A DNA stretch of 64,000 nt from Dipteris shenzhenensis. Taxonomy: Eukaryota. This document shows, piece by piece, positions 11,364 to 64,000 of the stretch; the stretch's first letter is position 1; each line of letters starts with the position of its first letter. The notes beneath the pieces are model-generated. The model made no database searches. It was not told the DNA's origin and was given only the letters and a program-made list of their open reading frames with translations. The stretch is from assembly GCA_047967505.1 (NCBI GenBank), contig CM106538.1; one strand, 5' to 3'. A program made the position numbers and the translations under genes.

Positions 11364-14300
11364 TGAGAGTGCTCTCAACGGAAGCAAGAATGGAAGAGGG
11401 AGAGAGAGAAACAGAGAGCCACACAAGTTTTGGTGGGTGCAGAACCACCCTAATCTTCTTTTTTTCATTCATTTATATATGTGTTTGAGTATTGTACATA
11501 ACTAGGGTAAAGGCACAGTGACCTTTAACCCCCACAACCTCCCACTTAAAGGACAATGTGCCTTTAAGGGAGAACAACCAGTGAGCATACTATCCAATGC
11601 CCATCAATACACGACAATTCTCAAACTGCTGACTAGGTAGACTCTTCGTCAACATATCTGCAGGGTTATCATCTGTATGAACCTTGACAAGCTCTATGCG
11701 CTTGTCCTCAAGTACCTCCCTAATGAAATGGTACCTGACCTTAATGTGTTTGGTCTTTGCATGAAAGACCGGATTCCGTGCTAGCTGAATAGCACTCATG
11801 GAATCGCTATGCAATGTCGGTACACCTGTATGAATCCCCAAATCTCCCCTAGCCGATCAAGCCATATAGCCTCCTTGCAACCCTCTGTGGTTGCAACATA
11901 CTCAACCTCTGTGGTAGACAAAGCAATGCACTTCTATGCGCGAGACATCCACGACACTGCACCACCTGCAAAGGTGAACACATAACTAGAAGTGGATCTC
12001 CTACTATCCACATGCCTTGCATAGTCTGAATCTGTGTACCCAAGTACACGCATGTCTCCTCTACCAAAGCAGATGCACATCTCCTTGGTACCCTTCATGT
12101 ACCTCATGATGCACTTAACTGCCTCCCAATGCCTCTTTCCTAGATTAGCCATATACCGGCTAACAACTCCCACTGCAAATGCAATGTCTGGTCTAGTAGC
12201 TATCATAGCATACATAAGACTCCCAACTGTTGATGCATAAGGAACCTTGGCCATCATGGCCCTTTCCTCATCTAATTTGGGACTATCTATATGACTCAGC
12301 TTCACATATGGAGGCAATGGAGTACTCACTGCCTCCCCCCCTCCATATTGAAACGCTACAATACTTTTGTAACATACTCTTTTTGTGAAAGCCAAAGGAG
12401 TTTCCTACTTCGATCACGCATGATGCGCATACCAAGAATATGACCTGCAAGTACCAAATCCTTCATATCAAAGGCCTCATGCAACTTGGCCTTTGATGCA
12501 TCTAGCTCATTAGTATTCTTGCTAGCCAACAGCATATCATCCACATATAGTGCCAGAATTATCAGGCTATTATCCTTAGCCCTTTTAGTGTAGAGGCAGT
12601 GATCAATTTCACTCCCAAAACCCTGGGACCGAATGAAAGCATCAAACTTCTGATACCATTCTCTACGCACTTGCTTAAGACCATAGAGACTCTTCTTCAG
12701 CTTGCAAACTAAATGCTCTTTTCCCTTTTCTTCAAAGCCTTCTGGCTGTACCATGTAAATTTCCTCATGCAAATCCCCATGCAAGAAAGCTGTCTTGACA
12801 TCCATCTGCATAAGCTCCATATCCTCTGATGCCACTAGTCCAAGCATGCATCTAAGTGTGGTCATCTTCACAACCGGAGAGAATATCTCATCAAAGTCCA
12901 CACCCTTCTCTTGCTTGAACCCTTTAGCGACCAAACGGGCCTTGTATCTAGGCACATCATTACCTGGGACCTTCATCTTGTAGACCCATTTACATGCTTT
13001 CTTTCCATGTGGCAAAGAAACCAAGTCCCAAGTCTTATTCTTCATAAGTGAACTCACCTCTAATTGCATAGCATACTCCCACTTGTGTTGATCCTCGCAC
13101 ATCATAGCCTCTCTATAGCAAGAAGGCTCCACGCAATCAGTAAGCATCACATAGTCTACCCCTAGAACAAACCTATCAGGTGGTCTAGACACTCTAGATG
13201 ATCTTCTCAAGGGCATTTCAGCTTGCTATCCCACCTGCATATCAGCCACATTTGGCTCATCATTTCCACCAATAGATGATCCATCATCTACCCTTGATTG
13301 TATACCTGTGGGAGTACTTGGTGGTACCATTTCTTGCACATTTGGTGCATGGACAGCTTGCTGTCTATCAACATATGCAAGTGGATTCACATCCTGGAAA
13401 GTGATTCTCCTCATTTCCACATCCCTCAAGGGTGTCTTATGCATCTTCTTCTCATTGAAGACTACATCATGGCTGCGTATGATCTTCTCTGCTTTTGGAT
13501 CCCAGAGACGATAGCCCATCTCTCCACTTTCACCATAACCCAGAAAGATACATTTTTTAGACTTAGGATCTAGCTTCTTTCGAAGCTCTTTCGGCACATG
13601 TGCATATGCCTCACACCCAAATATACGCAAATGAGAGTAAGAGGGCTTCTTGCCACTCCATGCCTCTTTAGGAATACCACCATCCAAACTCTTACTAGGT
13701 GATCTATTGATCACATGCACTGCAGTCTTCATTGCCTCAGCCCAAAAACCACCAGAAAGACTTGCATTGGAAAGCATGCATTGCAACCTTTCTTGAATGG
13801 TACGGTTCATCTTTTCTACAACTAGATTTTGCTCTGGAGTACAAGGGGATGTGAGCTCCCTCTTAATCCCACGTGTATCACAGAAATACTGAAAGTCATG
13901 AGAGAGATACTCTCCACCATTGTCAGTCCGTAGGCATTTAAGCGTTCTACCTGACTGATTCTCAACCAAGGCCAGCCATTTTTGAAATACCTGGAACACA
14001 TCACTCTTCCGAGCTATAGCATAAGCCCACACTTTCCTAGTTGCATCATCAATGAATGTCACATAGTATTCAGCCCCGCCTAATGACCGTGTAGGCATGG
14101 GACCACATACGTCTGAATGCACCAAATCAAGCTTTTCAAACTCTTTCTTTCCCCTTCTTTTATGGGCTGATTTAGTCTGCTTCCCATAGAGGTAGTGCTC
14201 ACAAAATTCAAACTCAAATGCGGTACATAACCCAAATGGCATAAGAGTTTCATTCCATTCTGGCTCATGTGCCCCAACCTGCAATGCCACAAAGAAGTGC

Positions 14301-41952: not shown

Positions 41953-43455
41953 CTAACTAAGGAAGACTTGGTTTCCCAAATCTTCGTTTTTGTCGGGGAT
42001 GGCTCGCGTGTTGATGTAGTAGCGCTTCAGTCGGCTCCCCTTTATTGTTGTGTTGAATTGGACTCCATCTAGTGTTTCAAGTAGCACAGCTCCGATGGGA
42101 TTCATCTTTCGTACTCGGTAGGGTCCTTGACCTAGATACTTCAGTTTTCCCTTGTGTACTTTGGCATTGTATAATAGGACTAAGTCGCCTTCCTTGATGT
42201 CTTTAGCTTTCAGATTCCTGTCAAACCATGCCTTTCTTCGACGTTTTTCTGTTGTCATGGCATGATAAGCGACTAGTCTTGTCTCTGTATGCTTTTCCAA
42301 CTGACAGAGCCTTTCTTTCAAGGACTCATGATCACCCATGCGTTCCTGTACACTGCGATGCGTAGACTTGGTATTACAAATTCGAGTGGGACCACGGCTT
42401 CAAGGCCGTACACCAATTGAAAAGGTGTGTTCCCTGTACTAACCTTGAATGTGGTTCTGTATGCCCATAAGGCTGCATTCAGTTTCTCTGCCCAATCAGA
42501 ACACTGTGGTTCTACTACCTTGGTGAGGATATTGCATATGATTTTGTTTGTGGATTCTGCTAGTCCATTCCCTTGGGGGTAGTAGGGTGTGCTTTTTCTA
42601 TGGATGACCATGAAGCCAGACAAGAGTTCTTGGATTACCTCATTGACAAAATGTGTGCCTCTATCCGACACAATTTCAAGGGGGCATCCGAATCGGGTGA
42701 TCACATGTTCGTATAAGAATCTTGCTATGCTTTTGGCATCTGCCTTTCTGACTGCTTTAGCTTTAGCCCATTTTGTAAAGTAATCAGTGGCCACAATGAT
42801 GTAGCATGCCTGTGTTCCTTTTGCTGCTGGATGTATGGGACCCACATAGTAAATCCCCCATTTTTCAAATGCTTGTTGTGCAACAACTGTTGTTAGGGGA
42901 TTGAAGTCTTTGTGTTGTGGTTTAATAGTCCGTTGGCATACATCACAACCTTTTACATATTCATAGGCATCTGCCCACAGTGTTGGCCACCAATAGCCTG
43001 CGAGGAGAACTTTTCTTGCTGTGGCTTCCCCTTGGAAGTGTCCTCCTGCAATCCCTTCATGGACTTCACTCAAGATTGGTAGGATCACATGAGGCATTAC
43101 ACATCTTCTTAATATCTGGTCCTTGCCCATCTTGTACAGTTGTCCTGCAATGAGTTGATAGGGTGCAGCTTTTAGAATCAATTTTCTGGCATCTACTACT
43201 TTCATGTCAGGGGGTGGTCTTCCTGCCATCAAGTACCCAATGATATCTCCACACCATTCTAGAACAGCATCTATTTGAAATAGTGTGGCATCTGGTAAGT
43301 CGTCTTCTACTCCAGTGGCTTCTTCTCCTGTCTTGACTCGAGACATGTGATCGGCAATGTAGTGTTGGGCACCTTTGCGGACCACGATTTTGAAGTTGAA
43401 TTCTTGCAACAAGAGGAGCCATCTGGTTATTCTTCCTGTGGTACATGGACGGTTA
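41953..43455 (-). pseudogene. Ty3/gypsy RNase H end plus integrase
   Basis: GRITRWLLLLQEF, HHCC zinc finger (HEGIAGGH...CDVCQ), DDE region (WGIYYVGP with D>Y, SDRGTHF, NGLAESTN) and GPY motif; RNase H-integrase order indicates gypsy. Confidence 0.92.
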
Positions 43456-43457
43456 TA

Positions 43458-44415
43458 TGTGTAGCTTAGGACCTCGAGTCGTGTTCCGGTGCGAGACGTA
43501 GGCTTAAGTGTGGTAAGCAAACAAAGTGCAAGCATGTGTAAAAGGCACATAAACCATCTTTGTTGAGGTAATGAAGGCTTTCGCCTTCATTGGGAGTTGT
43601 AGGGTTTAGGAGGAGTTTAAGGGTTCAGAAGGAGGTTCCAGGGTTCAGAAGGAGGTTCCAGGTTTTAGAAAGAGTTCCAAGGTTTAGAAGGAGGTTCCAG
43701 GGTTTAGAAAGAGTTCCAGGGTTTAGAAGGAGGTTCCAAGGTTTAGAAGGAGTCCAGGGTTAGAAGGAGGATCCAAGGTTCAGAGTAGAGTACATGGTGG
43801 AGAACTCGTCTCCCTCGTAGATCATGGAGTTTAAGGGTTTAGGAAAGCATAGGAGTGGGAGAGGAAGAAGGTGTAAGAGCATGGGTGAAAGAAGTGAGAG
43901 GAGGAAGGAGGAGGAGGGAAGAGGAGGATGGAGGGGGAGGAGGGAGGAGGAGGAGAAGGAGGAAGGAGGAGGAGAGAGGAGGAGAGAGAGAGGGTGGGTT
44001 GCAGGGTTGGAGGAGAGGGGAGAAGGGTTGCAAGGTTAGGACATGCTTTTGGACGTGCAGTGCAAGGAAGCATGGACACTTGAGACAAATGCTTGGAATA
44101 CCAAAGTAGACTCAACACAATGCCCCAAAGAGTGTGGGCTTCATTCCATTATGGGGTATTTATACAAGTTGGAGAGCTTCTCTCTTTGCATGTAACACAA
44201 AGTCGTATCACAAAGTTGTAACACATTCTCTCTCTACATGTAGAAGTTGTAACACAAATTTGTAACACAAAGTTGTTACACAAAGTTGTTACACAAAGTT
44301 GTAACACAAAGTTGTGTCACAAAGTCGTAACACATTCTCTCTCTTCATGTAGAAGTTGTAACACAAACTTGTAACACAAAGTCGTAACACAAAGTTGTGT
44401 CTAGAAGTTGTAACA
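43458..44415 (-). mobile_element. Orphan LTR fragment (family X, copy 2)
   Basis: Homologous to 15260-15888. Contains ~20-bp GGGTTTAGAAGGAGGTTCCA repeats (43600-43785), a (CCT)n tract, a TATA box and a 13-bp array (GTTGTAACACAAA)n at 44190-44415. Confidence 0.6.
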
Positions 44416-46423: not shown

Positions 46424-49400
46424 TGTAAAGAATGAGGGAGAGAGATAGGAGACTCAAGTTCAGCTTTCTTCACAACACACAAAAGAGAGAGGACACAAGG
46501 TTGGAGGGTGAAGCCTTTCTTCACTTTTGCACACAACAACGATACAATAGAAGAGGGAAATACCCTACATGTCAAAACCTACAATACGTGGTTCATATGT
46601 GAACCCAAACCAAAAACATACGTGGTAGTCTAACTACACCACGAGTACAACTAACATAGGCGGTGACATAAATGATAGTCATCCAGGAGATATATCGGGG
46701 GTAGAGCTTGATATCTCAACACTCCCCCTCAAGCTCAAATCCATCTCACGTACACCAAGCAAGCTCCTAAATCTGCGAAGCTTCTCGGTACCCAATGCCT
46801 TCGTAAAAATATCAGCCACCTGCTCCTCAGTGCTGACATAGACAAGATCAATCTCACCAGCTAGAACCTTCTCTCTCACAAAGTGATAATGCACCTCAAT
46901 GTGCTTCGTTCTAGCATGATAAACTGGGTTATTAGCAAGCATGATGCTGCTAATGTTGTCACAATGAATGACAACTGCTGCATGAACTGACTGTCCCATA
47001 TCTCCAAGTAGCTTCCGTAACCAAGCTACCTCACATGCAGCCATTGCTGCACCCCTGTACTCAGCCTCTGTGCTCGACAAGGCAACTGTTGGCTGCTTCT
47101 TGCTGCTCCAACTGATGGCACCACTCCCAAGGGAAAACATAAAACCACTAGTAGATCTCCTGTCTGAGACACTACCAGCCCAGTCAGCATCTGTGTATCC
47201 ATGTACCTGTAATGCACACCCAGCTTCATAAAACAGTCCATAATGCAATGTGGACTTCACATACCGCAGTATGCGCCTAGCCGCATCCAAATGTGGCTTC
47301 CTCGGTGCCTGCATAAACTGACTCACCAGCCCCACAGCATAGCTCAAATCTGGTCTGGTTATAGTCATGTAAATCAAGCTACCTACTATGCGCCTGTACA
47401 TAGTAATATCTTCAAGAAGCTCACCTGACTCTGCATTGAGCTTCACATTCTGCTCCAATGGAACAGAGATAGGCTTACAGCCTGTCATCCCATATTTGGA
47501 CAGCATGTCCAAACCGTATTGCCTTTGCAACAGCCATATCAATTACTGCTCTCACGGTTGCCATCCTTGCAACTGGGCTGAAAGTTTCCTCATAGTCAAT
47601 TCCATATGTCTGTGCAAAACCTTTGGCAACCAATCTTGCCTTGTACCTGCTAACAGACCCATCAGCATTGTGCTTTACTTTGTACACCCACTTGCAGCCA
47701 ATAGCCTTCTTATCATGAGGCAAAGGCATCAAATCCCAAGTGTGGTTTGCATCCAAGGCAGCCATCTCTTCATCCATAGCTGCTTCCCAATTTTTATGCC
47801 CTGCTGCATCCTCAAAACATGTGGGCTCTGGCTCCTCTAGAACCTTGACCATATAAGCATAGTGATGTGCTGTATACCCATCATATCTCAGCCTGTCAAC
47901 TGGATACTTAATACGAGTGGACCTCCGTACAACTGGATCAGTTGCAGGCGTCTTTAAATCATGCCTGCTTTTCCTTGCACCAGGTGTAACAACAGAAGGA
48001 ATCCCAAGTTCCTCATCAAGGCTCATTTCAGAGCCGCTTGACTCTCCATCAACATGAGAACTACCAGCAGACACATCAAATACTGGAGCATGGTCCACTT
48101 TTTCTTTTCCCTTATGTGATACCTGCACAACACTATCAGGACTCCCATGTGACGATTCACTAGATCTCAATCTCCCTGTCCATGCATTAGATCCACTAGT
48201 AGAGGACTCTCTGGGTCCACTCAAGGCTTGAGATTGCTGCTCTGCATTTATTGCAGCATTCCCATTTCCTGCATCTGCATCTCCTACCATAACAGTTGGT
48301 GCATACCAGCTGCTCATTTCATCAAAAACAACATCTCTGCTCACTTGCATTTTGCGGGTGGAAGGGTTATAACAGCGATACCCTTTCTGGTGCTGAGCAT
48401 ATCCAATAAAGATGCATTTTTCTGCCTTTGGATCCAGCTTTGTTCTCTTCTCATCAGGAACATGAACATAAGCTATGCAACCAAATACCTTCAAGTGAGA
48501 AATATCTGGTTTTTGGCCTGTATACATTTCTTCAGGCGTCATGCCATGGACAGCTGCAGTGGGGGTTCTGTTCATAATATAAACAGCAGTTGCTACTGCT
48601 TCAGCCCAAAAATAATCAGGCATGTTTTTCTCATTTAGGATCGCCCGTCCTACTTCTGCAATATGCCTGTTCTTCCTTTCTGCAACCCCATTCTGCTGAG
48701 GGGTAGACCTGCATGAGTACTTCCTTTGAATTCCCTGTTCTTTCAGATATTCACAAAATTCTTCTGAAAAGTACTCTCCCCCTCCATTGTTGGAATACTG
48801 AAAGGAAAGAGTAGAGTGGACACAAAATCAGAATACTTTCATATAGAATGAAGAAGAAAGAGGTCCTTAAGTAGGCACCTCATACAAGGTCACTGACATC
48901 ACTGATGACCTCAAAGCTCCACAATCATCTCCTCAATCTACTCCTAGATTCACTCAATCATCCTATGTGGCTTTTCCACCACCTAACTGTGCTTGTGGGC
49001 ACCTAACTGTGCCTCTAGCACTCACACATAGAAACATAAGGTGTGCCTGAGGCATACACCTTGAGATATCCCAACAAACCCCCCCTCAAGGAGATGCCTC
49101 AGGCTATGTCAAGGATACATCTAGTCTCATAGTTTCTCATGCCATCTCATGGTGGTCAAGGATAAATCTATGGCTAGGTTCTCATGCTAGCAAGGGTTTC
49201 CTTGGGTGTAAGGTAAACAGAAAGGGATACAAACAGACCTTCCGATGGTTATCTCTCCTACATGTACATGCACACAATGTCTGTAGGAGGTACCATGGAA
49301 CAAACATACACATGGCCTACATCATAAGGTGACCAGAGGTGTTCACAAAACACAACACACAATAATTTATTTTCATTCATTTTGGAGGACTATCCAGGCT

Positions 49401-51143
49401 GAGTACCTTGACATAAAAAGAGTGATCTGGAGCATACATAGAGATAATTTAAAATGCATAATCTTCAAAGGATGCCTCATCTTGTGGAGGCTCATCAACT
49501 GAAAGTAGATTTGCATTTTCTGTCTTTGAAGTTGCTTCCTTTTTGGCAACCATTGTTTTGGCAATCTTCAACAAGGAAGTCAGATTGGCATTTTCATCCT
49601 TTGTAGCATAACAAGACATTGCTTTATGTTTTGGCTTTTCACATATTTTGCATAAGCAAGCCATGAGAGGGTCTAACCCAGATATTGGGCAATGTCTTCT
49701 CTCTTACAGGGCTTAGAATAACAATTGAAATGCTTCAAAATATAAGCATTTAATGTAGCAAAGTCTTGTGACCAAATTTCAAACAATGATGCTTCTTCTT
49801 ACATGCTTCATAGAAGTGGGTGAAATAAACACTTTCCAATCAAAACCAGGTCTAGCAAGTCAAAACAAAACTGAAGCAACACTTGTAGTGAAGTTATTGA
49901 AAACTTCAAAAGACCAGAAATGCTAGAGTAGCATTTTATGTAGCATCATCTTCAAAACTTGTCCAAAACTGTCAAAAATGAAAAGCTGAACTTGGAGGGC
50001 TTGTAGCTCACTCTTCAAAGCAAAGAAAAGAGGGCTTTCTGAAGCAAAAGAAAGCTCATATACCAGAGAAGGTCCAGCACAGAGGTTGGACGAAATGGTG
50101 CGCACTTTTGCCCGGGAGAGTTGCTACAGGCTGAAACTGAGTTTTGACGATTTCTCCCTTGTTACTGAACCAAATGACTTGAAAAATGGCTCAAAATCTT
50201 CGTCTTGAGGTCGCCCATCTACTCCTAAGAGGGCTCAGGCAATGGCGGAGCAGGCAGGGAGTATTGAGCAACAGAAGAAATTCACTATTTGGAGAATGGC
50301 AGCCACCACAGACGTTTTTTCTTCAATTGCTTGTAGGTGGAAGTTCGCCCATACTAGAGGAGTTTCCAGCTCAGAGGGTTTGGGCAATGGTCGTTTGTAG
50401 ATGGAGAACCAAGCTCTCAAAGATTTTGGGAAGAAAGAGGAAAATGGAGAAGAAGAAGATGAAGAAGAAGATGATGATGTGGCAGAAATGGGCTCAAGGG
50501 GGATCAAATGGCTCTGATACCATGTTGGAATACTGAAAGGAAAGAGTAGAGTGGACACAAAATCAGAATACTTTCATATAGAATGAAGAAGAAAGAGGTC
50601 CTTAAGTAGGCACCTCATACAAGGTCACTGACATCACTGATGACCTCAAAGCTCCACAATCATCTCCTCAATCTACTCCTAGATTCACTCAATCATCCTA
50701 TGTGGCTTTTCCACCACCTAACTGTGCTTGTGGGCACCTAACTGTGCCTCTAGCACTCACACATAGAAACATAAGGTGTGCCTGAGGCATACACCTTGAG
50801 ATATCCCAACATCCATCAGATCTTAGCACTTTAATATGCACACCTTTCTCTTTTTCAACCATGGCCTTAAAAGCCTTGAAATGGCTGAACACTTCACTTT
50901 TGTGCTTCATAAAATAAATCCACACCTTCCTTGTGTAGTCATCAATAAACGTCACATAATAATGGCATCCACCAATAGAAGCAGCTTTGGTTGTCCAAAC
51001 ATCTGAATGGATCACTTCCAAAGGTCTTCTGCTCACCTTAGCATTTTTAGGAAATGCATGTCTGGCCTGCTTACCCATTTGGCATGCTTCACATACCTTT
51101 TGCATTCCCTCAACTCTGAATTTAGGCAAACCTGCAACAATGT
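46424..51143 (-). mobile_element. Ty1/copia family B (related to A); 3' LTR 46424-46721; 5'-truncated; RT core deleted
   Basis: Integrase 50812-51143 and 48787-47550, RNase H 46679..47542. ATVRAVI joins directly to IWLLQRQYG at ~47540, so the YVDD region is missing. Confidence 0.92.
48788..50811 (-). mobile_element. Non-autonomous LTR retroelement (2024 bp) with decayed gag and no pol
   Basis: 289-bp LTRs at 48788-49076 and 50523-50811 appear identical; PBS 50511-50522; PPT 49077-49088; TSD TCCAT; zinc knuckle CKICEKPKHKAMSC at ~49615-49655. Confidence 0.95.
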
Positions 51144-51347
51144 TAGAGGGGACCTTGTTGCTGAGGTTAAGGACTCTGCCATCGAATCTTCTTGGGAAGA
51201 GATTTGACGGGGGGTCTCGTTGTTGAGGCTGGAATTTTTTGCTATCTTGCATACATGTTGGATGCGATTGCACCTGTATCATTGAGCTTGTAGATAAGTT
51301 TGTATGCAAGTCTGATATTTTTGCATAAAGACCGTATTAGATAATTT

Positions 51348-54138
51348 GGGAAAAACCCCATTCCCAGAATGGCAGTTTTGGAAGAAATTGTAGCTCCCCT
51401 CAATGAAAAAACAGGAGAAATATGTGAAAATAGACTAGATAGCCATTCATGAAGTGTGAAATATCAACTACATTCTCAAATAATAAATAGAATATAAGTG
51501 TCTAAACTATGTTATCATCAAAAAAATAATAAACTTTGAAACCCATTTGAGTTAGATTCATCTCGTGAGCCATAGTGATGTTCAAAAACTCCTTCATAAT
51601 TCTGGAATTTCCATTGATATTGAGACTCGCTTTTGTTGTGAGCATTCTCATTTGAAAATCTCCAAAACACCGTTTAAAAAATGTAGAGTGTAATTAATAA
51701 CCATGAGTATTGCAATGAAAACGCATAGGCTCTTTAACTTAGTAAGATATGTAGTTGATGGAAAATCAAGATATGTAGTTGAGGAGAATGAATGCAAGAT
51801 ATGTAGTTGATGGAAAATCAATGGGCAATGACAAGCATTTGATGTAATTTAGGTGGCAATGACAATCATTTATTATGCACTTTCAATTTTTGGACTGACT
51901 ATCATTATTGTAAAACGATAACTTTACATGTCATGTTGATTACTCATTGCAAAGTAAAAAAGTACACTTTAGGATGGAAACATAACAACTTGTTGATACA
52001 CCATTGAAATCCCTGAAATAAATCATGATTCCAAAGAAACTCTCAACCACTAGCGGAGAATGGCAGTAGGATAATGGCAAAAGTGCCAATGCACATGTGA
52101 GTTTAGGATTCCTTGTGCATGTTTTTAGGTCATGATATGAGATTGGCACCACTACCATTCTCCATAGAGATCGGCACAATTCCATATGATCTCTGCACAT
52201 GGGAGTTTAGGCTTCTCAATGACATTTCTTAGGGCCTAATAAGAGATTGGCACCACTGCCATTCTTCACTTGTACAAATGTTTACCCTACTATTCTAGGA
52301 GGGGTATTCCAGTGATCATAGGAGAGTGGTGTCCGATTCCAATCCACATGTGAGTTTGACGATCTCAGAGATTGACACAATTCCATATGATCTCTACACA
52401 ACGGAGATAGTGATCACTACATAAAAGAATGCACATGTGAGTTTAGGATTCCTTGTGCACCACTGCCATTCTCCACTGGTGGCATTCTATAATGGCAAAA
52501 CTGCCAATCCACATGAGTTTATGATTCCTTGTGCTTGTTTTCAGGTCATGGTATGAGATTGGCACCACTACCATTCTCCACTGTTGCCATTCTCCACAGA
52601 GATTAACACAATTCCATATGATCTCTACACAGCGGAGATAGTGACCACTACATAGAAGAATGCACATGTGAGTTTAGGCTTCTCAATGCCATTTCTTAGG
52701 GCCTAATAAGATATTGGCACCACTACCATTCTCTTGTATAAATGTTTACCCTACTATTCTAGGAGGGGTATTCCAATGATCATAGGCGAGTGGTGTTCGA
52801 TTCCAATCCACATGTGAGTCTAATGATCTCAGTATCATTATGTAGGTGCCACCATGAGTTTGGCATCACTGCCATTCTCCACTAGTGGTTGTCTAGACAA
52901 ACTAAACTTATAGATTGACATTCCAAGGCCTAATAAGAGATTGACACAATTCCATATGATCTCTACACAGCAGAGATAGTGATCACTACATAGAAGAATG
53001 AGCATGTGAGTTTAGGCTTGTCAATGCCATTTCTTAGGGCCTAATAAGAGATTGGCACCACTGCCATTCTCCACTTGTACAAATGTTCACCCTACTATTC
53101 TAGGAGGGGTATTCCAATGATCATAGGAGAGTGGTGTCCGATTCCAATCCACATGTGAGTTTGATGAACTCAGAGATTGACACAATTCCATATGATCTCT
53201 ACACAGCGGAGACAGTGATCTCTACATAGAAGAATGCACATGTGAGTTTAGGATTCCTTGTGCATGTTTGCAGGTCATGTTATGAGATTGGCACCACTAC
53301 CATTCTCCACTGGTGGCATTCTCCACAGAGATTGACACAATTCCATATGATCCCTACACAGCGGAGACAGTGATCGCTACATAGAAGAATGAGCATGTGA
53401 GTTTAGGCTTCTCAATGCCATTTCCAATTCCCTATTCGGGAAAAAACCCAATTCCCAGAATGGCACTTTTGGAAGAAATTGTAGCTCCCCTCAATGAAAA
53501 AACAGGAGAAATATGTGAAAATAGACTAGATAGCCATTCATAAAGTGTGAAATATCAACTACATTCTCAAATAATAAATAGAATATTAGTGTCTAAACTA
53601 CGTTATCATCAAAAAAATAATAAACTTTGAAACCCATTTGAGTTAGATTCATCTCGTGAGCCATAGTGATGTTCAAAAACACCTTCATAATAGCGAGTCT
53701 CTGGAATTTCCATTGATATTGAGACTCGCTTTTGTTGTGAGCATTCTCATTTGAAAATCTCCAAAATACCGTTTCAAAAATGTAGAGTGTAATTAATAAC
53801 CATGAGTATTGCAATGAAAATGCACAGGCTCTTTAACTTAGTAAGATATGCAGTTGATGGAAAATCAAGATATGTAGTTGAGGAGAATGAATGCAAGATA
53901 TGTAGTTGATGGAAAATCAATGGGCAATGACAAGCATTTGATGTAATTTAGGTAGCAATGACAATCATTTATTGTGCACTTTCAATGTTTGGACTGACTA
54001 GCATTAAAAACAATAACTTTACATGTCATGTTGATTACTCATTGCAAAGTAAAAAAGTACACTTTAGGATGAAAACATAACTTGTTGATACACCATTGAA
54101 ATCCCTGAAATAAATCATGATTGCAAAGAAACTCTCAA
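51348..54138. repeat. Two ~700-bp direct repeats (51348-52046, 53438-54138) enclosing a modular tandem array
   Basis: The repeats align throughout and lack TG..CA ends. The interior is shuffled modules (GAGATTGGCACCACTxCCATTCTC; CACAATTCCATATGATCTCTACAC; CACATGTGAGTTTAGG). Confidence 0.9.
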
Positions 54139-54330
54139 TTTCTAGCCCCAAAGAGAATGGCACCGGAAAGAATGGCACGAGAGACACTCCTTCTAAATAC
54201 ATTATGAATGTAGTTATGAACATGTTTGCATATTATTCACACACAACAATTACGCACCAATTTACATAGTTGGCAAGAAAGTAGTAATTCCCATAAGTAA
54301 TGATTGTATAAAGATATACAATGTTGTTAT

Positions 54331-54860
54331 TTAAAACTCATAGTCTGCAAATAGCTCCTCTCCTGCATGTATATCATCTATGGATTCAATACAAATGTGA
54401 CCATATTCTGCAATATCTATGTTCATCATGGGGTCATACCAAGGTGGAACATCAGGGGAAAATACATAACAAACATTTGGCTTTACATTGGTATTTCTAT
54501 TACTGTTAATAAATCCTGCCACATTGCCATATTGAACATCACCAACAATATGCACCATATCCTTCATAGGGACAGTAGGGTCCTCTTGGATCGAGTACTT
54601 CTTTAGCCTTGGATGAACTCTACATAATTCCTTCCAGTCACTGTAGGAGTACTTGTCACCTCCATAATGGAGAATAGTAGTCCCTCTCTTGATGGAGCCA
54701 TGCACAAACAAGCCAGCTCCTGTAATGGTTGACTCATGCACCTCGAAAGCCACATTTTTTATCCAGAACACTTCGTTGATAGGGACAGGTAACTTTGGTG
54801 GTCCAAATGGATCTCGTTCTGGTATGTACCTACTCAAGCTTGATTTGAACGTATATCTAT
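54331..54860 (-). CDS. SET-domain (protein lysine methyltransferase-like) exon
   Basis: STITGAGLF (motif I), GNVAGFINS (GN.ARFINH-like), DIHAGEELFADY (ELxxDY); no post-SET cysteines. Preceded by intron 54945-54861/54857 with a CTAAT branch site. Confidence 0.85.
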
Positions 54861-54947
54861 CTACATCACAAAAGACAAATTCAATTAGCTACAACAACAG
54901 TTATATATATTGAGATAAAATCAAAAAACACTTTGACATATGTACCT

Positions 54948-57268
54948 TCATGAAAAATACGCATTCTGTAGTCGGGTTATGTAGCCCTTAGCAATGTATT
55001 TCTTGATATAGCGACCTTTGTACCCTAGGTCTATAGCCAATTGAGAAACTTGCATAGCATTCATGCTAGAGAGTTGCGGAGCGTTCCTTAAAAGTCTTAT
55101 TTGGGATGCATTGAGTTTAGGCACCTGGCCATCACCACCATGGGTTGCCCTACCATCTATATCCCTCTCTCTTAGTTGATCTGCAAGAGGAAGATTTCTT
55201 GTTTTATATTCCATTCTTGACCATGCATGATTTTCCTCCCTCCATTCATCAATTACTTTCTGGACAAGGTTGAAATCCTTATGCCCCTCCATCACAGGTA
55301 ATTGTCCATACCGATTTGTCTCAATCATGCTGCGCACATCTTTAGTCTCATCGAGTTGTAGTAAGTACGGCATCAACTCTCTCAGTAGAATATTATCATC
55401 CTTGTCTTGTACATCAAACGTTGAAGGAAATATGCAATTTGATGGAGGGCTAATGCAAGCCTTGTATGGGGAGTCATCAACAAGGATTGTCCTTCTAGCA
55501 TCACATCCAAATGCCTTTGAGATTTTTGCTAAGGGTTTGAACATTGCCTCAACACCAACCTTGTCAGGCCTATTTATCCTTGTCTTACTGTAAGTGTAGC
55601 ATCCTTGCTGAGACCATATAACAAAGAAAGGGAGGCTCTCATTTGCATAATTTTGCAGCTTTCCTACCATATCAAGTACGTTATGCTCCATCGCAGTTGA
55701 CCAGATACCTACATTAAATCTTTGTAGCAAGATTTTAAGAAATTCTATGCACCCAGGACGAACAACCATATAACTATTTTTGCCATGCATAATAGACGGA
55801 TGTATTGGAGACTTGAATAGGCAGCGACTTAATAACAAGCCATTCAAGTCTAATATGATTGTTAATCGTGGCATATCCAAAGAAATTGTATGTGGATATA
55901 GATCCAAATTCTCCTTGAAGTTGCTGGCTTCTGACTCATCCAAATTGTCAGGTGCTATGATTTCATGCATGTTTGCAACAACAATAAGATTATCTAGTTT
56001 TGTCCCCAATGTTGAGATAGTACGTTCATCCATGTTCTCTTCTAAGAGTATAGGATTCGTGATATTCCTTGCAATTTTCTCCATTTTTGGGGTTATGTTT
56101 TCTTCTATACCTCCTGCATCCATCGCGTAATTGATAGTCCCCATAACTGGGAGGCAGTCAATAGAGCGAGCGATAAAAAGCGAGCGAGCCCAAAAAAGCG
56201 AGCGACAATTAGTTGAAGTGGTTGGAAAATCAAGCAAGCAAAGAAAGAATCTAAGTTTTTTATAAAATAATTGCTTGAAGTACAAAGTATTCAAAAAGGT
56301 GGTTGTGTCACAAAATTTATATTCTGATGCACACAAGTTTTTTAGATGGTGCAAAAAGGCATGATATTCATCTAAATCATGCCTTGTCATTTGATTTGAT
56401 ATGTAACATTATGCCATTTATATTTGATAATCAAAAGATGCAGGGATGTAAAAAACTCATCTTTTGGGCCAAAACAATCAAATGTTGACATCTTGCCAAA
56501 ATATAGGGATGTGAAAATGTCCTCTTTTGGGCCAAAACAGGGAGCGCGTTAACGCGCTCCCTGTTTTGGCCCAAAAGAGGACATTTTCACATCCCTGTAT
56601 CTTTTGATTTACAAGTCCAAACGGGGTCATGTTACATATCAAATCAAATGGCAAGGCGTACTTTAGACGATTATCATGTCTTTGTGCACCATCTAGTAAA
56701 ATTTAATGCACCAAAAAATGAATTTGTGGCCAATTTGCTGCATTGGTAAGATTAGTGGGAGGTAAGAATAAATCATTAGGGAAGGATATTTTTGCAATAA
56801 CAAAGAAACATGGGTTTTGTTCCAAGAGTGAACAGAGTTAAAAAACCTAAGCATTTACATATGCATGGAATCTAGACTAATCCATGCAAGGAGTCCTTGG
56901 AAAGATGATCTCAATTACTCTAGTGGAAAGAGAGAACTTGATTGCAGTAGGGTTTGTCTTTGATACAAACAATGACTTGGAAGTTAAACATACAAACTGT
57001 CTCATGGATGATGTGAAATTAGTGTTAATGGCTTTAAAGTTATATGCATGTTTAACCTTCTGGCATTGAGGGAACATATGCACTTTTGAATAAGTTATTA
57101 TTTTTTGCTACTAAAATGGGGGATTTATAAATCTTTTATTGTTTTTTATCGCTCGCTTTTTTTGGCTTGCTCGCTTTTTGTCGCTCGCTTTTTGGTAATC
57201 CTCCATAACTGGTGGTATGTTGTCCTCTACATTTGATGTCTCCACATCCTTCCATGCATCATTGGTCC
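54948..57268 (-). pseudogene. FCP1/SCP-like (NIF, HAD-fold) phosphatase-domain exon, interrupted by the 56151-57203 insertion
   Basis: IILDLNGLL, VRPGCIEFL, VGIWSTA, MFKPL, TILVDDSPYK. The frame continues across the insertion (TNDAWKDVETSNVEDNIPPVMGTINY) from a splice acceptor at 57269. Confidence 0.85.
56151..57203. mobile_element. Non-autonomous Mutator-like element (1053 bp)
   Basis: 9-bp TSD CATAACTGG at 56142-56150 and 57204-57212; GAGG...CCTC ends with inverted AAGCGAGCG subterminal repeats; internal fold-back. Confidence 0.92.
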
Positions 57269-57411
57269 CTGTGGAAGTTGAGGAATATAGAAATATTTTG
57301 ATTCTTTAGAGTGTATTCAACAATGTCGAAGCACAAAAGCATATGAAACTAATAAATAACAATAAAGTATGAACATTATCCATCGTCGTTCACTGATTCC
57401 ATTGTATTTTT

Positions 57412-57935
57412 GGGGAATGGCAAAAGTGCCAATCTCTCTAAAGGTCAATTGAGAATGCAAATAGTGCAACCTTTCTCTCTGAACTCATAGAGAGAATGGC
57501 AATAGTGCCATTCTTCTCTTGGGGTGGTGCTAGTGCCATTTTACATATAAGGTTATGGAGAATGCCACTAGTGCCTTTCTCTATACCCTCATTGGGAGGG
57601 GAGAATACTACTAGTGCCTCCCCCCATGTCCCAAAAGAAATTTACAATGCATGATCTGAAAGCATAGATACTGTATTACTTTGGTCCAATAGATTTGTAG
57701 AAAGCACCCAAATCAAAACTTTGGTAGCATAGTTAATATTATACAATTTTTAATCTCTGTAATGCTTTCAACTAACATAGATTCAAGAAAGGAACATAAC
57801 AGTATTACCATTTCTACATAACCACAAAGAGAGAATGGCACTAGTGCCATTCTCCATATGAGGTCGCATAAAATGTTAATAGTACCTCTTACGTATAACC
57901 CGACATAGGGAGAATGACACTAGTACCATTCCCCA
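57412..57935. promoter_or_regulatory. Cluster of palindromic GAGAATGGCACTAGTGCCATTCTC-like motifs upstream of the FCP1-SET gene
   Basis: Perfect 24-bp palindrome at 57831-57854, with variants near 57414, 57492, 57558, 57601 and 57910. Function is inferred only. Confidence 0.55.
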
Positions 57936-58066
57936 TGTCATTATGTCACACAATTTTATCATACCTAATGTTTAATATCTTTAATATGATGAGAGTATGT
58001 GCAATCGAGAAAATCCATAAAAGTCATATTATTTTGAAACTGAATACACAAGGCATAAATGAGTAG

Positions 58067-58422
58067 CTAAAGACCTTGCTCCAAATCTTCCAATGTAATC
58101 TTTGGGATAGCTTCAAGATCTGCTTCAGTTAAAGGTCGCAAGTCTTCAATGTGATGCTCACCCTCTTTAATTCCTTCATCGATAGGTGAATCAGCTCTAT
58201 GTGTCTCAAGAGGCCTCTCAATGCTAGACCAAATCTTAATATGGTGATTATTTGATGCATGTGCCACACACATAGCCTCGACCTCTGTCACTTGTTGGGA
58301 TGTCTTCACCAGCGAGATCACTTTTCTTTTGCTTGACAATGCTTGTAATGCCACACATCCATTAGTAAAGACGTCAACAACAACTTCATGTTTCCTACTA
58401 CAATAGCACCTGATGCACTCCT
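58067..58422 (-). pseudogene. C-terminal part of an ORF split by copia C2; DNA amino-methyltransferase-like SAM-binding region
   Basis: Joins in frame to 63762-64000 across the TSD: KHGIIKECIRCYCSRKHEVVVDVFTNGCVALQALSSKRKVISLV. Confidence 0.55.
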
Positions 58423-61400
58423 TGTGGGGGTTAAAGGTCACTGTGCCTTAACCCCAGTTATGTACAATACTCAAACACATATATAAATGAATGAAAAAGA
58501 AGATTAGGGTGGTTCTGCACCCACCAAAACTTGTGTGGCTCTCTGTCTCTCTCTCTCGCTCTCTCTCCCTCTTCCGTTCTTGCTTCCGTTGAGAGCACTC
58601 TCAACTGGTATCAGAGCCCGGGTGATCTAGCTGAGTGTGCGTGAATGCTTGAAGCTTAGCAGCTCTGTGGGAGGAAGGAGAAGCTCTGTGGGAAGCTTTG
58701 TGGGTGACTTTACTTGCATCCGAGTGTGCAGAGACCTTGGAGGAACCTTTGGAAAAGTCACTTTGGCTTTGCGAAGTGGTTTTGAGAGCCTGTTAAGAGC
58801 TTTCAAAGAAAAAGTCGTTTTTTGAGCTTTTCCCTGTTCCATTCGATGACAGAGACTCCGTATTGACTTGTAGAGGCAACTATTGCTTGCTTTTGGTGTC
58901 CACATCACTTCAAGAGCTTGGAAACACCTTCATTCTTGAATCTGGGATCATTTCATTGGATTTCTGACTCACTGTGTCAGTTCCTGCGTTTTTTGCCCGG
59001 GTGTTGGAACTCAAGTTTGGAGCAACCATTTGCAGATCTGTCAGTTCCGGTGGACTCAGGAGGTCCTAAAACTTCTATGTTCTCATCATTCGCACTCCGG
59101 TGGAGTTTACAGATAGCTCTGTTTCCAAAAACGTTTTTCAGTCTGTGTGTTGGACCCAGTGATTGAGGCCATGGTTTCCAAAACCGTCTGTCCCATTGCG
59201 TTCCGGATGCCCAAAAACCCCTACCTATCAGTTCTTGCGTGATTCGGTGGAGGATTTTCAGAGTTATAAATCTCTGTGTATTCCATTTCGTCTCTCTGTT
59301 ATGCATTTTTCATACTAAGGTTTTGAAACCTTAGATTTATGCCACATGGCAGTGGATAAGTGTTGACTCCCATTTCTCACTCATCGGTTGGGATTTTGGA
59401 GTTCTGGCAGAAGAGAGATATTTGCAGATTTTCTTGCTGAGTCCGATTATGCAATGGCGCCCATGTTTTGAAGCATCTCAGGTTCTATTTTCAGTAGCGC
59501 TCATTACCGTGGGACTATGATTTCTTGAGCATACCTTATGCAGATCACTCTGGTTGCAGTTTGAGCAGTGTGCGCTCATTCGTGGTATGCATTGGGTTGC
59601 AGTGGATGATTTATAGGCCATTTGGATGCATTGCGGTCCTTGTTGGATGCGCTGATAGGCCCAAATTGCCTTGTGGGATGCTATTTTTTATGGACGCTTT
59701 GCACATGGATGCTATTTTATGCTGAGGGACAGCTTTGCCACATTGTTGGTGATGCACTGATAGTGCTATGCTCTCTTGGATGAGATATAATTGATGCATA
59801 TGCCAGTGGACGGTGTTTATGCTTGAGTCATTTGGCACTTATTGGCATTTTCTTTTGGGCCAGATTTGCTCATATGGATGCATAGTATATGCACATGAGT
59901 CAGATGCATCTTTTGATGCTTTGAGCTTTGAATTTTGGTGATATTTCACTCTATTGTGGCATACACATTTGGGTGCACCTAGTATTTGGTGTGATTCTCT
60001 CTTGCAGGCACTAGCATTTGGGATTTTGTTTCATTTGCATCATGGCATCCTCTTCCACGTCTGAAAAGGAGTTTTTCAGCATTTAAAAGTTTGATGGGAC
60101 AAACTTTTCTTTGTGGAAAGAACAAATAAGGGATGTGCTTATTCAAAAGAAGCAGATTAAACCCTTGGCAGGGATTGAAGCTAAGCCTGCAAATATGTCT
60201 GAGGATGATTGGAATGAGTTGGATGCATTAGCAAAGTCTACTATTAGACTTCATCTTGCAGAGTCAGTTTATTTCACAGTAGTAAATGAGCAGACTACGG
60301 AAGATTTGTGGAAGAAACTGTGTGCCACTTATGAGAAGGAAACTGCCTCTAATAAAGTTTACCTCATGAAGAGGTTGTTTGAGCTGTAGATGAAGGAAGG
60401 GGTCTCCATTGCTTCTCACTTGAATGAATTCAATATTATTTTCAGCCAGCTTCAGGCTCAGAAAATGAATTTTGATGCGGAGACTAAGGCAATATTTCTC
60501 TTGTGTTCATTGCCATCCTCATGGGATACCTTCCGTACAGCTGTCAGTAACTCTACACCTAGTGGAGTACTGAAATTTGATGATGTTGTGGGTAGCTTGT
60601 TGGCCGAGGAGATTAGACGGAAGTCTATGGATGGCAACAAGCAGGATGCAGCCTTAAATGTGCAAAGGGGCAGATCACAGTTCAGGGGGAAGTCCCAAGA
60701 AAGAGGGAAGTCTCGTAGTAAATCCAGGGCACGGAACATTGAGTGTTACCATTGTGGCAAGAAGGGCCATATGAAAAAGGATTGCTACAAGCTGAAAAGA
60801 GAGCAAAAGGATAAGAAAAAGAATGCAAATTGGGGTGCAAATCAAAAGGAAGAGAGTCCAAGGGAGGACAAAGGAAAAGTGAAGATCGAGGAGATCAATG
60901 CAGTCACACATGATAGTGACAATGATGTTCTCTTCATGTCTACTTTATCTGCAGAGTTGCTTACCACTTCAGATGATGCATATTCCCAGGATTGGATTTT
61001 GGATTCTGGTGCTTCATTCCATGTTACTCCCCATAGGGAATGGTTCTCCACTTATGACAGTGGAAAGACAGGTTGTGTGCATCTTGGAAATGACTATGCA
61101 TGTGACATAGTGGGAGCAGGTGACATAAAGTTTTCTTTTGCAAATGGGTCTGCATTTGTTTTGAAACATGTGAGACATGTGCCTAAGCTGACCAAGAGTC
61201 TTATTTCAGTGGGTCAGCTAGATGATGCTGGTTTTCACACCACTTTTGGCTTTCAGAGTTGGAAAATTCAAAAGGGCTCTATGCTTTTGGCTAGGGGTGC
61301 CAAGTGTGGGACTTTGTATCCCTTACATGTATCAGGGGTATTTGATCATGTTGTTGCAATAACCGAGTAGCCAAGCACTTCTTTGTGGCATTGCAGGTTG

Positions 61401-63761
61401 GGGCACATGAGCCAAAATGGAATGAAACTCTTATGCCGTTTGGGTTATGTACCGCATTTGAGTTTCTCTGATTTTGAATTTTGTGAGCATTGTCTCTATG
61501 GGAAGCAGACTAAATCAGCCCATAAAAGAAGGGGAAAGAAAGAGTTTGAAATGCTTGATTTGGTGCATTCAGACGTATGTGGTCCCATGCCTACACGGTC
61601 ATTAGGCAGGGCCGAATACTATGTGACATTCATTGATGATGCAACTAGGAAAGTGTGGGCTTATGCTATAGCTCGGAAGAGTGATGTATTCTAGGTATTT
61701 CAGAAATGGCTGGCCTTGGTTGAGAATCAGTCAGGTAGAATGCTTAAATGCCTACGGACTGACAATGGTGGAGAGTATCTCTCTCATGACTTTCAGCATT
61801 TCTGTGATACACGTGGGATTAAGAGGGAGCTCACATCCCCTCATACTCCAGAGCAAAATCCAGTTGCAGAAAAGATGAATCGTACCATTCAAGAAAGGTT
61901 GCAATGCATGCTTTCCAATGCAAGTCTTTCTGGTGGTTTTTGGGCTGAGGCAATGAAGACTGCAGTGCATGTGATCAATAGATCACCTAGTAAGAGTTTG
62001 GATGGTGGTATTCCTGAAGAGGCATGGAGTGGCAAGAAGCCCTCTTACTCTCATTTGCGTATATTTGGGTGTGAGGCATATGCACGTGTGCCAAAAGAGC
62101 TTCGAAAGAAGCTAGATCCTAAGTCTAGGAAATGCATCTTTCTAGGTTATGGTGAAAGTGGAGAGATGGGCTATCGTCTCTGGGATCCAGAAGCAAAGAA
62201 GATCATACGCAGCCATGATGTGGTCTTCAATGAGAAGAAGATGCATAAGGCACCCATGAGGGATGTGGAAATGAGGAGAATCACTTTCCAGGATGTGAAT
62301 CCACCTGCATATGTTGATAGACAGCAAGCTGTCCATGCACCAAATGTGCAAGAAATGGTACCACCAAGTACTCCCACAGGTATACAATCAAGGGTAGATG
62401 ATGGATCATCTATTGGTGGAAATGATGAGCCAAATATGGCTAATATGCAAGTGGGACAGCAAGCTGAAATGCCATTGAGAAGATCATCTAGAGTGTCTAG
62501 ACCGCCTGATAGGTATGTTCCAGGGGTAAGACTATGTGATGCTTACTGATTGCGAGGAGCCTTCTTGCTACAAAGAGGCTATGATGCGTGAGGATCAACG
62601 CAAGTGGGAGTATGCTATGCAATCAAAGATGAGTTCACTTATGAAGAATAAGACTTGGGACTTGGTTTCTTTGCCACATGGAAAGAAACCATTGCCATGT
62701 AAATGGGTCTACAAAATGAAGGTCACAGGTGATGATGTGCCTAGGTACAAGGCCCGTTTGGTTTCAATATGGAGGGGGGGAAGGCAGTGAGTACTCCATT
62801 GCCTCCATATGTGAAACTGAGTCATACAGATAGTCCCAAATCAGATGAGGAGAGGGCCATGATGGCCAAGGTTCCTTATGCATCAGCAGTTGGGAGTCTT
62901 ATGTATGCTATGATAGCTACTAGACCAGACATTGCATTTGCAGTGGGAGTTGTTAGCCGGTATATGGCTAATCCAGGAAAGAGGCATTGGGAGGCAGTTA
63001 AGTGCATCATGAGGTACATGAAGGGTACCAAGGAGATGTGCATTTGCTTTGGTAAAGGAGACATGCGTGTACTTGGGTACACAGATTCAGACTATGCAGG
63101 GCATGTGGATAGTAGGAGATCCACTTCCGGTTATGTGTTCACCTTTGCAGGTGGTGCAGTGTTGTGGATGTCTCGTGCACAGAAGTGCATTGCTTTGTCT
63201 ACCACAGAGGCTGAGTATGTTGCAGCCACAGAGGGTTGCAAGGAGGCTATATGGCTTGATCGGCTAGTGGGAGATTTGGGGATTCATACAGGTGTACCGA
63301 CATTGCATAGTGATTCCATGAGTGCTATTCAGCTAGCACGGAATCCGATCTTTCATGCAAAGACCAAACACATTGAGGTCAGGTACCATTTCATCAGGGA
63401 GGTACTTGAGGACAAGCGCATAGAGCTTGTCAAGGTTCATACAGATGATAACCCTGCAGATATGCTGACGAAGAGTCTACCTAGTCAGCGGTTTGAGTAT
63501 TGTCGTGTATTGATGGGCATTGGATAGTATGCTCACTGGTTGTTCTCCCTTAAAGGCACATTGTCCTTTAAGTGGGAGGTTGTGGGGGTTAAAGGTCACT
63601 GTGCCTTAACCCCAGTTATGTACAATACTCAAACACATATATAAATGAATGAAAAAGAAGATTAGGGTGGTTCTGCACCCACCAAAACTTGTGTGGCTCT
63701 CTGTCTCTCTCTCTCGCTCTCTCTCCCTCTTCCGTTCTTGCTTCCGTTGAGAGCACTCTCA
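58423..63761 (+). mobile_element. Ty1/copia family C, copy C2: complete boundaries, defective pol
   Basis: 181-bp LTRs at 58423-58603 and 63581-63761 appear identical; PBS 58606-58617; TSD CTCCT. gag-pol 60042-63527 has stops at 60084, 60387, 61368 and 61692 and a ~577-bp RT deletion at ~62762 relative to C1. Confidence 0.97.
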
Positions 63762-64000
63762 CTCCTTGATGATGCCATGCTTCACAACCGCCTCTTTTCC
63801 ATACTCATCACCCTCATCAGAATAAAGAATATTGTCCTCAATTATTGTGTATGGCCTTGTGATTTCTAACATGTGCTCAAATCCATCAAACCCATCATGT
63901 GAGCTGACAAATGACAAAAAACAGAAGGTCTCAGACAAACCCTTTTGTGCTTTATCCGATTCATGGATAACACCCACAAACCTTCTATGCCAAAATCGAG
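63762..64000 (-). pseudogene. Upstream part of the methyltransferase-like ORF (open to the window edge)
   Basis: RFWHRRFVGVIHESDKAQKGLSETF...KEAVVKHGIIKE; no stop before the copia C2 junction. Confidence 0.6.

Follow-up and report, generated by a model that had tools for sequence, protein, structure and literature searches.

The 64-kb stretch of Dipteris shenzhenensis DNA analyzed here (the window, to whose positions all coordinates refer) carries a gene in which an exon for a NIF/FCP1-type, phosphatase-like domain is followed, across an intron-like spacer, by a separate exon for a minimal SET domain. Judged by sequence comparison, the stop codon at the end of the NIF exon is ancestral and conserved, and the locus is a conserved two-part gene with a separate SET exon, rather than a fusion gene that a single recent mutation has broken. 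The gene also extends further than first described: the part noted initially corresponds to the 3′ half of a plant gene with several exons on the minus strand, which is the strand analyzed throughout unless stated otherwise. We tentatively propose, with slightly less than even confidence, that the gene consists of an N-terminal domain, a stop-terminated NIF exon and a separate SET terminal exon, and that the SET exon would be reached by skipping the NIF exon. Both domains are ordinary, and what is notable is their lasting linkage and a stop held at a splice donor across deep divergence. The parts of the gene are listed below from 5′ to 3′, a slash marking a splice border.

63767..63998, minus strand: 5′ piece of the N-terminal exon, whose frame stays open as far as the end of the window; the gene start lies beyond it.
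58075..58422, minus strand: 3′ piece of the N-terminal exon, ending at the phase-1 donor CAAG/GTCTTT (G at 58075, GT at 58074-58073).
57269..58074, minus strand: putative intron 1, its splicing inferred from sequence; it holds copies of a palindromic GAGAATGGCACTAGTGCCATTCTC-like motif.
57203..57268, minus strand: start of the NIF exon, behind the phase-1 acceptor ccacag/; positions 57203-57212 are one copy of the target-site duplication of an inserted element that resembles a miniature inverted-repeat transposable element (MITE).
54948..56150, minus strand: main part of the NIF exon; it comprises degenerate repeats of acidic character, the NIF domain (about 55332-55865) and a C-terminal tail that is conserved, and it closes with the TGA stop (54950-54948).
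54861..54945, minus strand: intron-like spacer of 85 nt, running from GTACAT through a pyrimidine tract to TAG; the donor is kept in the metagenome contig L002, described below.
54331..54860, minus strand: SET exon, with a phase-1 acceptor, the SET domain (about 54340-54720) and the stop TAA (54333-54331).

The NIF/FCP1-type frame is open from 56408 and is closed by the TGA. An AG (54947-54946) separates this stop from the putative donor GTACAT, which begins at 54945. After the pyrimidine-rich tract there are two candidate acceptors, the TAG ending at 54861 and a second AG ending at 54857, and the SET frame spans 54888-54331, closing with its TAA. The stop, the donor and both acceptors pointed out in the initial annotation can be read directly in the sequence, and its reading-frame arithmetic is correct for both splice options that it considered, namely acceptor 54857 with a CGA>TGA change and acceptor 54861 with a 1-bp insertion in a T5 run. 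The 480-aa open reading frame (ORF) that it described is real, but its actual size is 486 codons from stop to stop, and the first ~86 of these are not gene sequence: they are read-through of an inserted 1,052-bp inverted-repeat element at 56151-57202.

Only the acceptor at 54861 has outside support. Contigs from the sequencing runs X4 and X6 lose their match to the window at 54861/54862, and a phase-1 acceptor is present at the equivalent place in contig L001, in L002 and in gene models of the fern Adiantum; none of these sequences lends support to 54857. The acceptor reads ...tgtgatgtag/AT AGA in the window, ...cttttgcag/AT ACA in L001 and ...cttttcag/GA CAA in L002. The junction residue is D, N or H in 12 Adiantum models that are otherwise constant there, as would be expected if the first base of the codon comes from another exon. 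Directly 5′ of the Adiantum-type SET exon acceptor, L001 carries four to five tandem repeats of ~60 nt (60-330).

The comparison with sequencing runs covered window positions 54250-57350 only, and uncovered parts, such as the NIF exon in X4, carry no weight. Run X1 carries the same stop and T5 run, and its contig over 54910-55076 differs from the window once, at 54976; X1 may be the source sample, and its agreement is not independent support. A contig of the DNA run X2 spans 54731-55103 and so connects the NIF and SET exons; it has a 1-nt insertion inside the 85-nt spacer.

Two other ways of joining the exons were considered and rejected. The donor GC/GTATTT (54961/54960) combined with acceptor 54857 is in frame, but it is unsupported by L002 or the contigs and would drop conserved residues. 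An alternative donor inside the NIF exon would have to use the single phase-1 NGT codon common to the window and L002 (AAG/GTCGCT and GTG/GTTGCT, respectively); both sites are weak, and the Gly is not conserved in other relatives.

Age of the stop codon and linkage of the two exons

The initial annotation had explained the stop by a recent CGA>TGA change or 1-bp T5 insertion that broke an ancestral fusion. L002 contradicts this explanation. L002 is a 5,915-nt metagenome contig, one of 35 loci obtained from a scan with the SET alignment, and it carries a NIF frame at 3581-4606 (tblastn E 1e-54) and then a SET frame at 5106-5573, on the same strand and in the same order as in the window. Its NIF frame ends ...AAT TGA AAG/GTAGAT, and that of the window ends ...TCA TGA AG/GTACAT. 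The TGA and the GGTA of the two sequences align base for base, with the TGA at the same aligned codon, at a protein identity of 35% (tblastn) to 42% (local alignment) for NIF and 39-40% for SET. The stop lies 2-3 nt before the donor in both, and this layout therefore predates the divergence to 35-42% identity. The NIF and SET ORFs have both stayed open since the window and L002 diverged.

The relatives of the NIF ORF end at the same place. Alignment A1 contains 17 of them, chosen among 45 NIF hits, and the 14 that extend to the C-terminus all end 0-10 residues past the column of the window stop. P0023, a eukaryotic gene model of Adiantum nelumboides, is among those ending near it. Because L002 has the same TGA and donor and all 14 NIF relatives end there, the stop is ancestral. 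Moreover, after intron removal the SET frame is offset from the NIF frame by +1 in the window and by +2 in L002, and therefore no single repair or shared frameshifting mechanism yields a fusion in both. One reading frame leading from NIF across the junction into SET was found in neither the window nor L002.

No protein carrying both NIF and SET was found among the 45 NIF hits, the 8 longer SET hits and the 10 long SET-bearing proteins scanned. The database proteins are for the most part ORFs called on unspliced contigs, where a fusion created by splicing would not be visible; in the Adiantum entries, which are gene models with splicing, a NIF–SET fusion is likewise absent. What survives of the description as a HAD phosphatase fused to SET is the presence of both domains on one strand, the GT...AG spacer and the linkage; the single fusion ORF does not.

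Beyond L002, the linkage probably recurs on two further contigs. NIF protein P0004 and SET protein P0099 come from an 8,811-nt European Nucleotide Archive (ENA) contig, and NIF protein P0029 and SET proteins P0101 and P0102 from a 7,581-nt one, the sharing of a contig being inferred in each case from the equal size and source of the entries. The NIF-then-SET order is thus probably present on both ENA contigs, which carry near-identical proteins and count as one further case of linkage. Identity between the window and the 8,811-nt contig is 51% for NIF and 56% for SET, and between the window and L002 it is 42% for NIF and 40% for SET. Pairwise identities rank alike for the two parts, that is, they diverge concordantly, and NIF and SET are inherited together as one locus. 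The named relatives are from the fern Adiantum nelumboides, with one SET relative from the lycophyte Diphasiastrum complanatum. In the literature searched, no description of a NIF–SET locus was found in titles and abstract openings.

Upstream exon and possible routes to the SET domain

Upstream of the NIF exon, in-silico removal of a retrotransposon of the copia type and one copy of its target-site duplication leaves a single frame that runs from 63998 to a stop at 58069-58067. The 3′ piece of this N-terminal exon shows 32% identity over 111 aa to residues 27-131 of the Adiantum protein P0039 (pairwise E 6e-14), whose NIF domain occupies residues 280-464. L002 likewise has a 519-codon ORF 5′ of its NIF exon, and this ORF is homologous to the N-terminal part of Adiantum P0035 (E 5e-25). 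Positions 1653-1850 of L002 also match the P0039 segment weakly. No Pfam family matches the N-terminal domain, no PDB sequence matches it better than E 0.13, and its language-model neighbors are unnamed clusters. It measures ~300-500 aa and is conserved 5′ of NIF (L002 321-1880; P0035 residues 67-365). In L002 an in-frame TAG (1878-1880) separates this domain from the acidic region, reflecting either an intron or a decayed copy.

Every splice site readable in the window and L002 is in phase 1. In the window these are the donor at 58075 and the acceptors at 57269/57268 and 54861/54860; L002 contributes two donors and three acceptors, and the L001 acceptor is also in phase 1. The SET exon has no ATG ahead of the SET domain. 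The database SET protein P0095 starts with M where L001 (409-411) has TTG, and therefore the M starts of such ORF-called proteins need not be ATG. The SET exon is without a reliable start codon of its own.

We propose that the SET domain would most simply be made by skipping the NIF exon, since all sites are in phase 1 and translation of mRNAs containing NIF would stop before SET. With the NIF exon included, translation would end at the TGA before SET; with it skipped, the N-terminal exons would join the SET exon directly and in frame. The gene would thereby encode two proteins that begin alike, one with a C-terminal part resembling carboxy-terminal domain (CTD) phosphatases and the other with a part resembling lysine methyltransferases, and a NIF–SET fusion protein would not be made. 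In favor of this, a 1,086-nt contig of X4 matches 54339-54861 with 3 differences and then runs on for 556 letters that fit nowhere in 54250-57350, and X6 contigs break off at 54862. The 30-letter consensus of the loose ends of X6 is absent from the window even when 3 mismatches are allowed. A stop so near the last junction would escape the exon-junction rule of nonsense-mediated decay, which offers a speculative rationale for the layout, although a long 3′ untranslated region could still matter in plants. If exon skipping takes place, one locus would bring two activities to the same targets, one directed at phospho-sites of the RNA polymerase II CTD type and the other at lysine methylation. 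A broader version of this proposal is less probable. The family would be a multi-copy one of seed-free plants, possibly borne by a mobile element, that joins one N-terminal targeting domain to either of two heads directed at chromatin or transcription, a CTD-phosphatase-like one or a minimal SET methyltransferase, switched by a cassette exon whose stop sits 2-3 nt before its own donor, with the layout fixed down to ~35-40% identity.

Several observations weigh against skipping of the NIF exon. Conservation of the donor that follows the NIF stop points to at least some transcripts in which the NIF and SET exons are joined, and there SET would lie in the 3′ untranslated region. The donor of the N-terminal exon, GTCTTT, fits the consensus poorly, and each phase match has a chance of about 1 in 3. 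Adiantum gene models never attach the SET exon to the N-terminus of the NIF gene, and no protein joining the N-terminal domain to SET was found among 132 database proteins. None of the compared runs is recorded as RNA, and X4 as RNA is a guess only. The SET exon is also multi-copy without NIF in Adiantum and possibly in X6, where depth is 100-300 over SET and ~2 over NIF (X6 may be DNA or RNA). Of the metagenome loci, 13 include 1.5 kb or more of upstream sequence, and NIF was found in just one of them, the other 12 being more distant SETs (≤38% identity). This multiplicity of solitary SET copies could mean that the SET exon moves on its own.

Among the other explanations, it is rather unlikely that two overlapping genes are present, with SET made from its own transcript and start, for example an ATG at 54962-54960, which overlaps the last NIF codons in the +1 frame and leads into the SET frame after splicing, or a non-AUG start within the exon. 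The spliced SET frame of the window does extend back by 11 codons, with an ATG 6 codons before the junction, and stand-alone ORFs of 167-207 aa exist in databases. However, L002 lacks an ATG in the corresponding 15-codon extension, the starts of the stand-alone proteins are unreliable as the case of P0095 illustrates, and the conserved acceptor implies an upstream exon.

Somewhat more doubtful is the view of the SET exon as a mobile or retro-copied multi-copy module whose adjacency to NIF has no function. It would account for at least 12 near-identical Adiantum SET exons to which gene models join upstream exons of unrelated kinds (Tf2 integrase SH3, reverse transcriptase, HLH and P450), for the uneven depth in X6, for the loss of similarity of X4 and X6 exactly at the exon border, and for the abundance of SET copies in the 35 metagenome loci, some of them interrupted by internal stops. 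Despite this, the window and L002 agree in order, strand, stop with donor and acceptor phase, the two parts diverge concordantly, the pair probably recurs on the two ENA contigs, and L001 shows a normal intron end rather than a retrocopy joint. The remaining metagenome loci (L003-L035) form a broader group of minimal SET ORFs, each closing immediately behind its ELF.Y motif, with several multi-copy subfamilies, for example ~10 copies with the same long N-terminal extension. The high copy number and patchy spread raise the question of whether the family is part of a mobile element that manipulates host chromatin. For annotation, models that link the SET exon to arbitrary upstream sequence, as happens in Adiantum, deserve distrust.

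A single ancestral NIF–SET fusion protein, recently broken in the window copy by CGA>TGA (with acceptor 54857) or by the T5 insertion (with 54861), is improbable. The frame arithmetic is right, and with one T fewer the donor would be in phase 1, fitting the conserved phase-1 acceptor; the absence of an ATG in the SET exon and the other damage to the window copy would also fit. This explanation is, however, largely refuted by the stop and donor of L002, and the C-termini of the 14 relatives, the differing frame offsets and the failure to find a two-domain protein all speak against it, as do the stop and T5 run in X1, the absence of a gap at the site in the X2 contig (only part of the X2 differences was displayed) and the missing outside support for 54857. 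Least probable is recoding, in which ribosomes translating the spliced mRNA would shift by +1 at UCA UGA A, a site that can be likened to the antizyme shift site, and make the fusion: skipping the U of UGA lands the ribosome exactly in the SET frame of the window, but L002 would require a +2 or −1 shift at another context (AAU UGA AAG), and the fused protein was not found among the NIF and SET relatives searched.

The NIF and SET domains compared with known proteins

Profile searches, which the initial annotation had suggested for NIF (PF03031) and SET (PF00856), recover both domains above the curated Pfam cut-offs. The NIF match has an E value of 3.5e-20 and 72.7 bits (cut-off 21.8), lies at residues 101-278 of the 405-aa translation and covers the profile end to end (positions 1-160 of 160). 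By this profile, with a score above the Pfam gathering threshold, the NIF exon is a member of the NIF/FCP1-SCP family of HAD phosphatases. Identity to ordinary angiosperm NIF proteins is only ~30%. The nearest solved relative is SCP1 (E 4e-4 in a single-sequence search of PDB), and the NIF family profile has no PDB match at E up to 0.01. In the NIF tail a SAP-like motif was suspected, but Pfam matches none there, even with E values of up to 10 admitted.

The DLNG variant of motif I, named in the initial annotation, is present and aligns with DLDET of human SCP1. The window reads D-L-N-G-L where SCP1 has D-L-D-E-T, so that the catalytic motif DxDx(T/V) is not found in its standard form. The nucleophile Asp is kept in the window, and the second motif position is Asn or Cys in all 18 aligned members; two Adiantum proteins read S-L-C-G and the remaining ones D-L-N-G-L. 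The second Asp of DxDx(T/V) is the acid/base residue. Because the family has Asn (or Cys) in its place, canonical catalysis appears doubtful, and the domain may bind phospho-sites rather than hydrolyze them. In comparison with SCP/FCP1-type CTD phosphatases (SCP1, 1T9Z/1TA0), the NIF domain shares the full profile match, and its nucleophile Asp and DDSP acidic motif align with those of SCP1. It differs from them in motif I (D-x-D-x-T/V in the known enzymes) and in lying within a much larger protein that has an N-terminal domain of ~500 aa and acidic repeats.

The SET match has an E value of 1.2e-9 and 39 bits (cut-off 22.4). The AlphaFold model of the domain has a predicted local distance difference test (pLDDT) score of 89.4, and Foldseek matches it to the MLL1 SET domain with E 2.7e-7 and a template modeling (TM) score of 0.53-0.58. 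The match probability is 1.00 to the SET domains of MLL1, G9a and EZH2, and MLL3, LegAS4 and SETD8 are also matched. In a sequence search, the SET family profile matches MLL1 with E 4.4e-7. The family conserves G49, N118, S119 and the Tyr of ELF.DY, and the His of NHS is replaced by Ser (INS(S/N)). The window copy lacks 6 nt, and hence two residues, in the GAG(LG)LF loop; these residues are present in all 17 aligned relatives (alignment A2), and the extra 6 nt are present in X4 and X6.

The domain is minimal, as first described: it has no pre-SET or post-SET region, and the whole family stops 1-3 residues past the ELF.DY motif. The statement that the architecture is not that of a standard plant SET class also holds. 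With cellular SET proteins (MLL1/KMT2A, G9a, EZH2 and SETD8) it shares the Pfam match and a predicted fold that matches MLL1 SET; the GxG loop, the Asn of (N)HS and the Tyr of ELF.DY are kept in the family, the window copy alone lacking two residues of the loop. Unlike them, the SET domain of the window has no flanking domains, reads INS(S/N) instead of NHS and is encoded by a single terminal exon 3′ of the NIF exon. Viral minimal SET proteins, such as chlorovirus vSET and those of giant viruses, are likewise small and without flanking domains; in contrast to these, the SET exon of the window has a spliceosomal acceptor and a plant genomic context.

A special resemblance to vSET, as first suggested, was not borne out. 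The best viral match to the model (in BFVD, E 2.5e-7) equals the best cellular one (in PDB, E 2.7e-7), so that cellular MLL1, G9a and EZH2 and the viral SETs match the model equally well. No vSET entry was present in the top 50 PDB fold matches or among the best 60 of 98 sequence matches, and a scan of IMG/VR found no relative of the SET domain. The language-model neighbors of the domain include SET clusters of haptophytes and of Nucleocytoviricota (score 0.96 for the latter), which we treat as a lead only. SETMAR is reported to be a gene that also brings a SET module and an unrelated module together at one locus via splicing. SETMAR-type genes differ in that the partner here is a phosphatase-like exon ending in a stop, with no fused frame.

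Transposon insertions and neighboring repeats

Two transposons interrupt the exons of the window copy.

58423..63761, plus strand: Ty1/copia long terminal repeat (LTR) retrotransposon inserted in the N-terminal exon, with 182-bp LTRs that are 100% identical by self-BLAST.
56151..57202, no strand assigned: MITE-like non-autonomous inverted-repeat element of 1,052 bp, inserted in the NIF exon.

The copia element is flanked by a 5-bp target-site duplication, CTCCT, at 58418-58422 and 63762-63766. Its ORFs match the Pfam families Retrotran_gag_2, Pol_BBD, rve and SH3_retrovirus, with no reverse transcriptase domain called in the ORFs scanned. Just 3′ of its 5′ LTR lies the motif TGGTATCAGAGC, which resembles a primer-binding site. 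Because the LTRs are 100% identical, the insertion is very recent. A third LTR-like copy, with 92% identity, lies at 11364-11537.

The MITE-like element has terminal inverted repeats of ~59 nt, whose arms are 81% complementary, and a 10-bp target-site duplication, CCATAACTGG; its excision restores the frame of the NIF exon. The duplication falls within the 9-11 bp range of Mutator-like MITEs, the superfamily assignment being made from duplication length alone. Other copies of the element, with different flanks, are present in X1, X4 and X6, as indicated by loose ends at 56151 and 57203/57204. Inside the element there are an inverted repeat of 164 nt (56313-56476/56562-56725) and a 53-nt palindrome with a perfect center (56498-56603).

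With the N-terminal exon split by the copia element, the NIF exon split by the MITE-like element and two residues lost from the SET cofactor loop, the window copy is probably inactive, either dead or dying. The damage is likely to be recent, since the ORFs of the window are otherwise open. For annotation, the window copy should be described as a transposon-disrupted, probably dead member of the family.

Just 3′ of the SET exon, a segment of ~700 bp (53434-54138) is repeated at 51344-52046 with 95% identity. The two copies flank a ~1.4-kb array whose repeats, 75-260 bp in size, center on a GAGAATGGCA..TGCCA motif; in palindromic form this motif also fills 57400-57930 in putative intron 1. Further retrotransposon remains lie in long ORFs, among them a gypsy-type integrase (42321-43586) and a copia integrase and reverse transcriptase (47478-51336), both on the minus strand. 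Transposons account for most of the window sequence.

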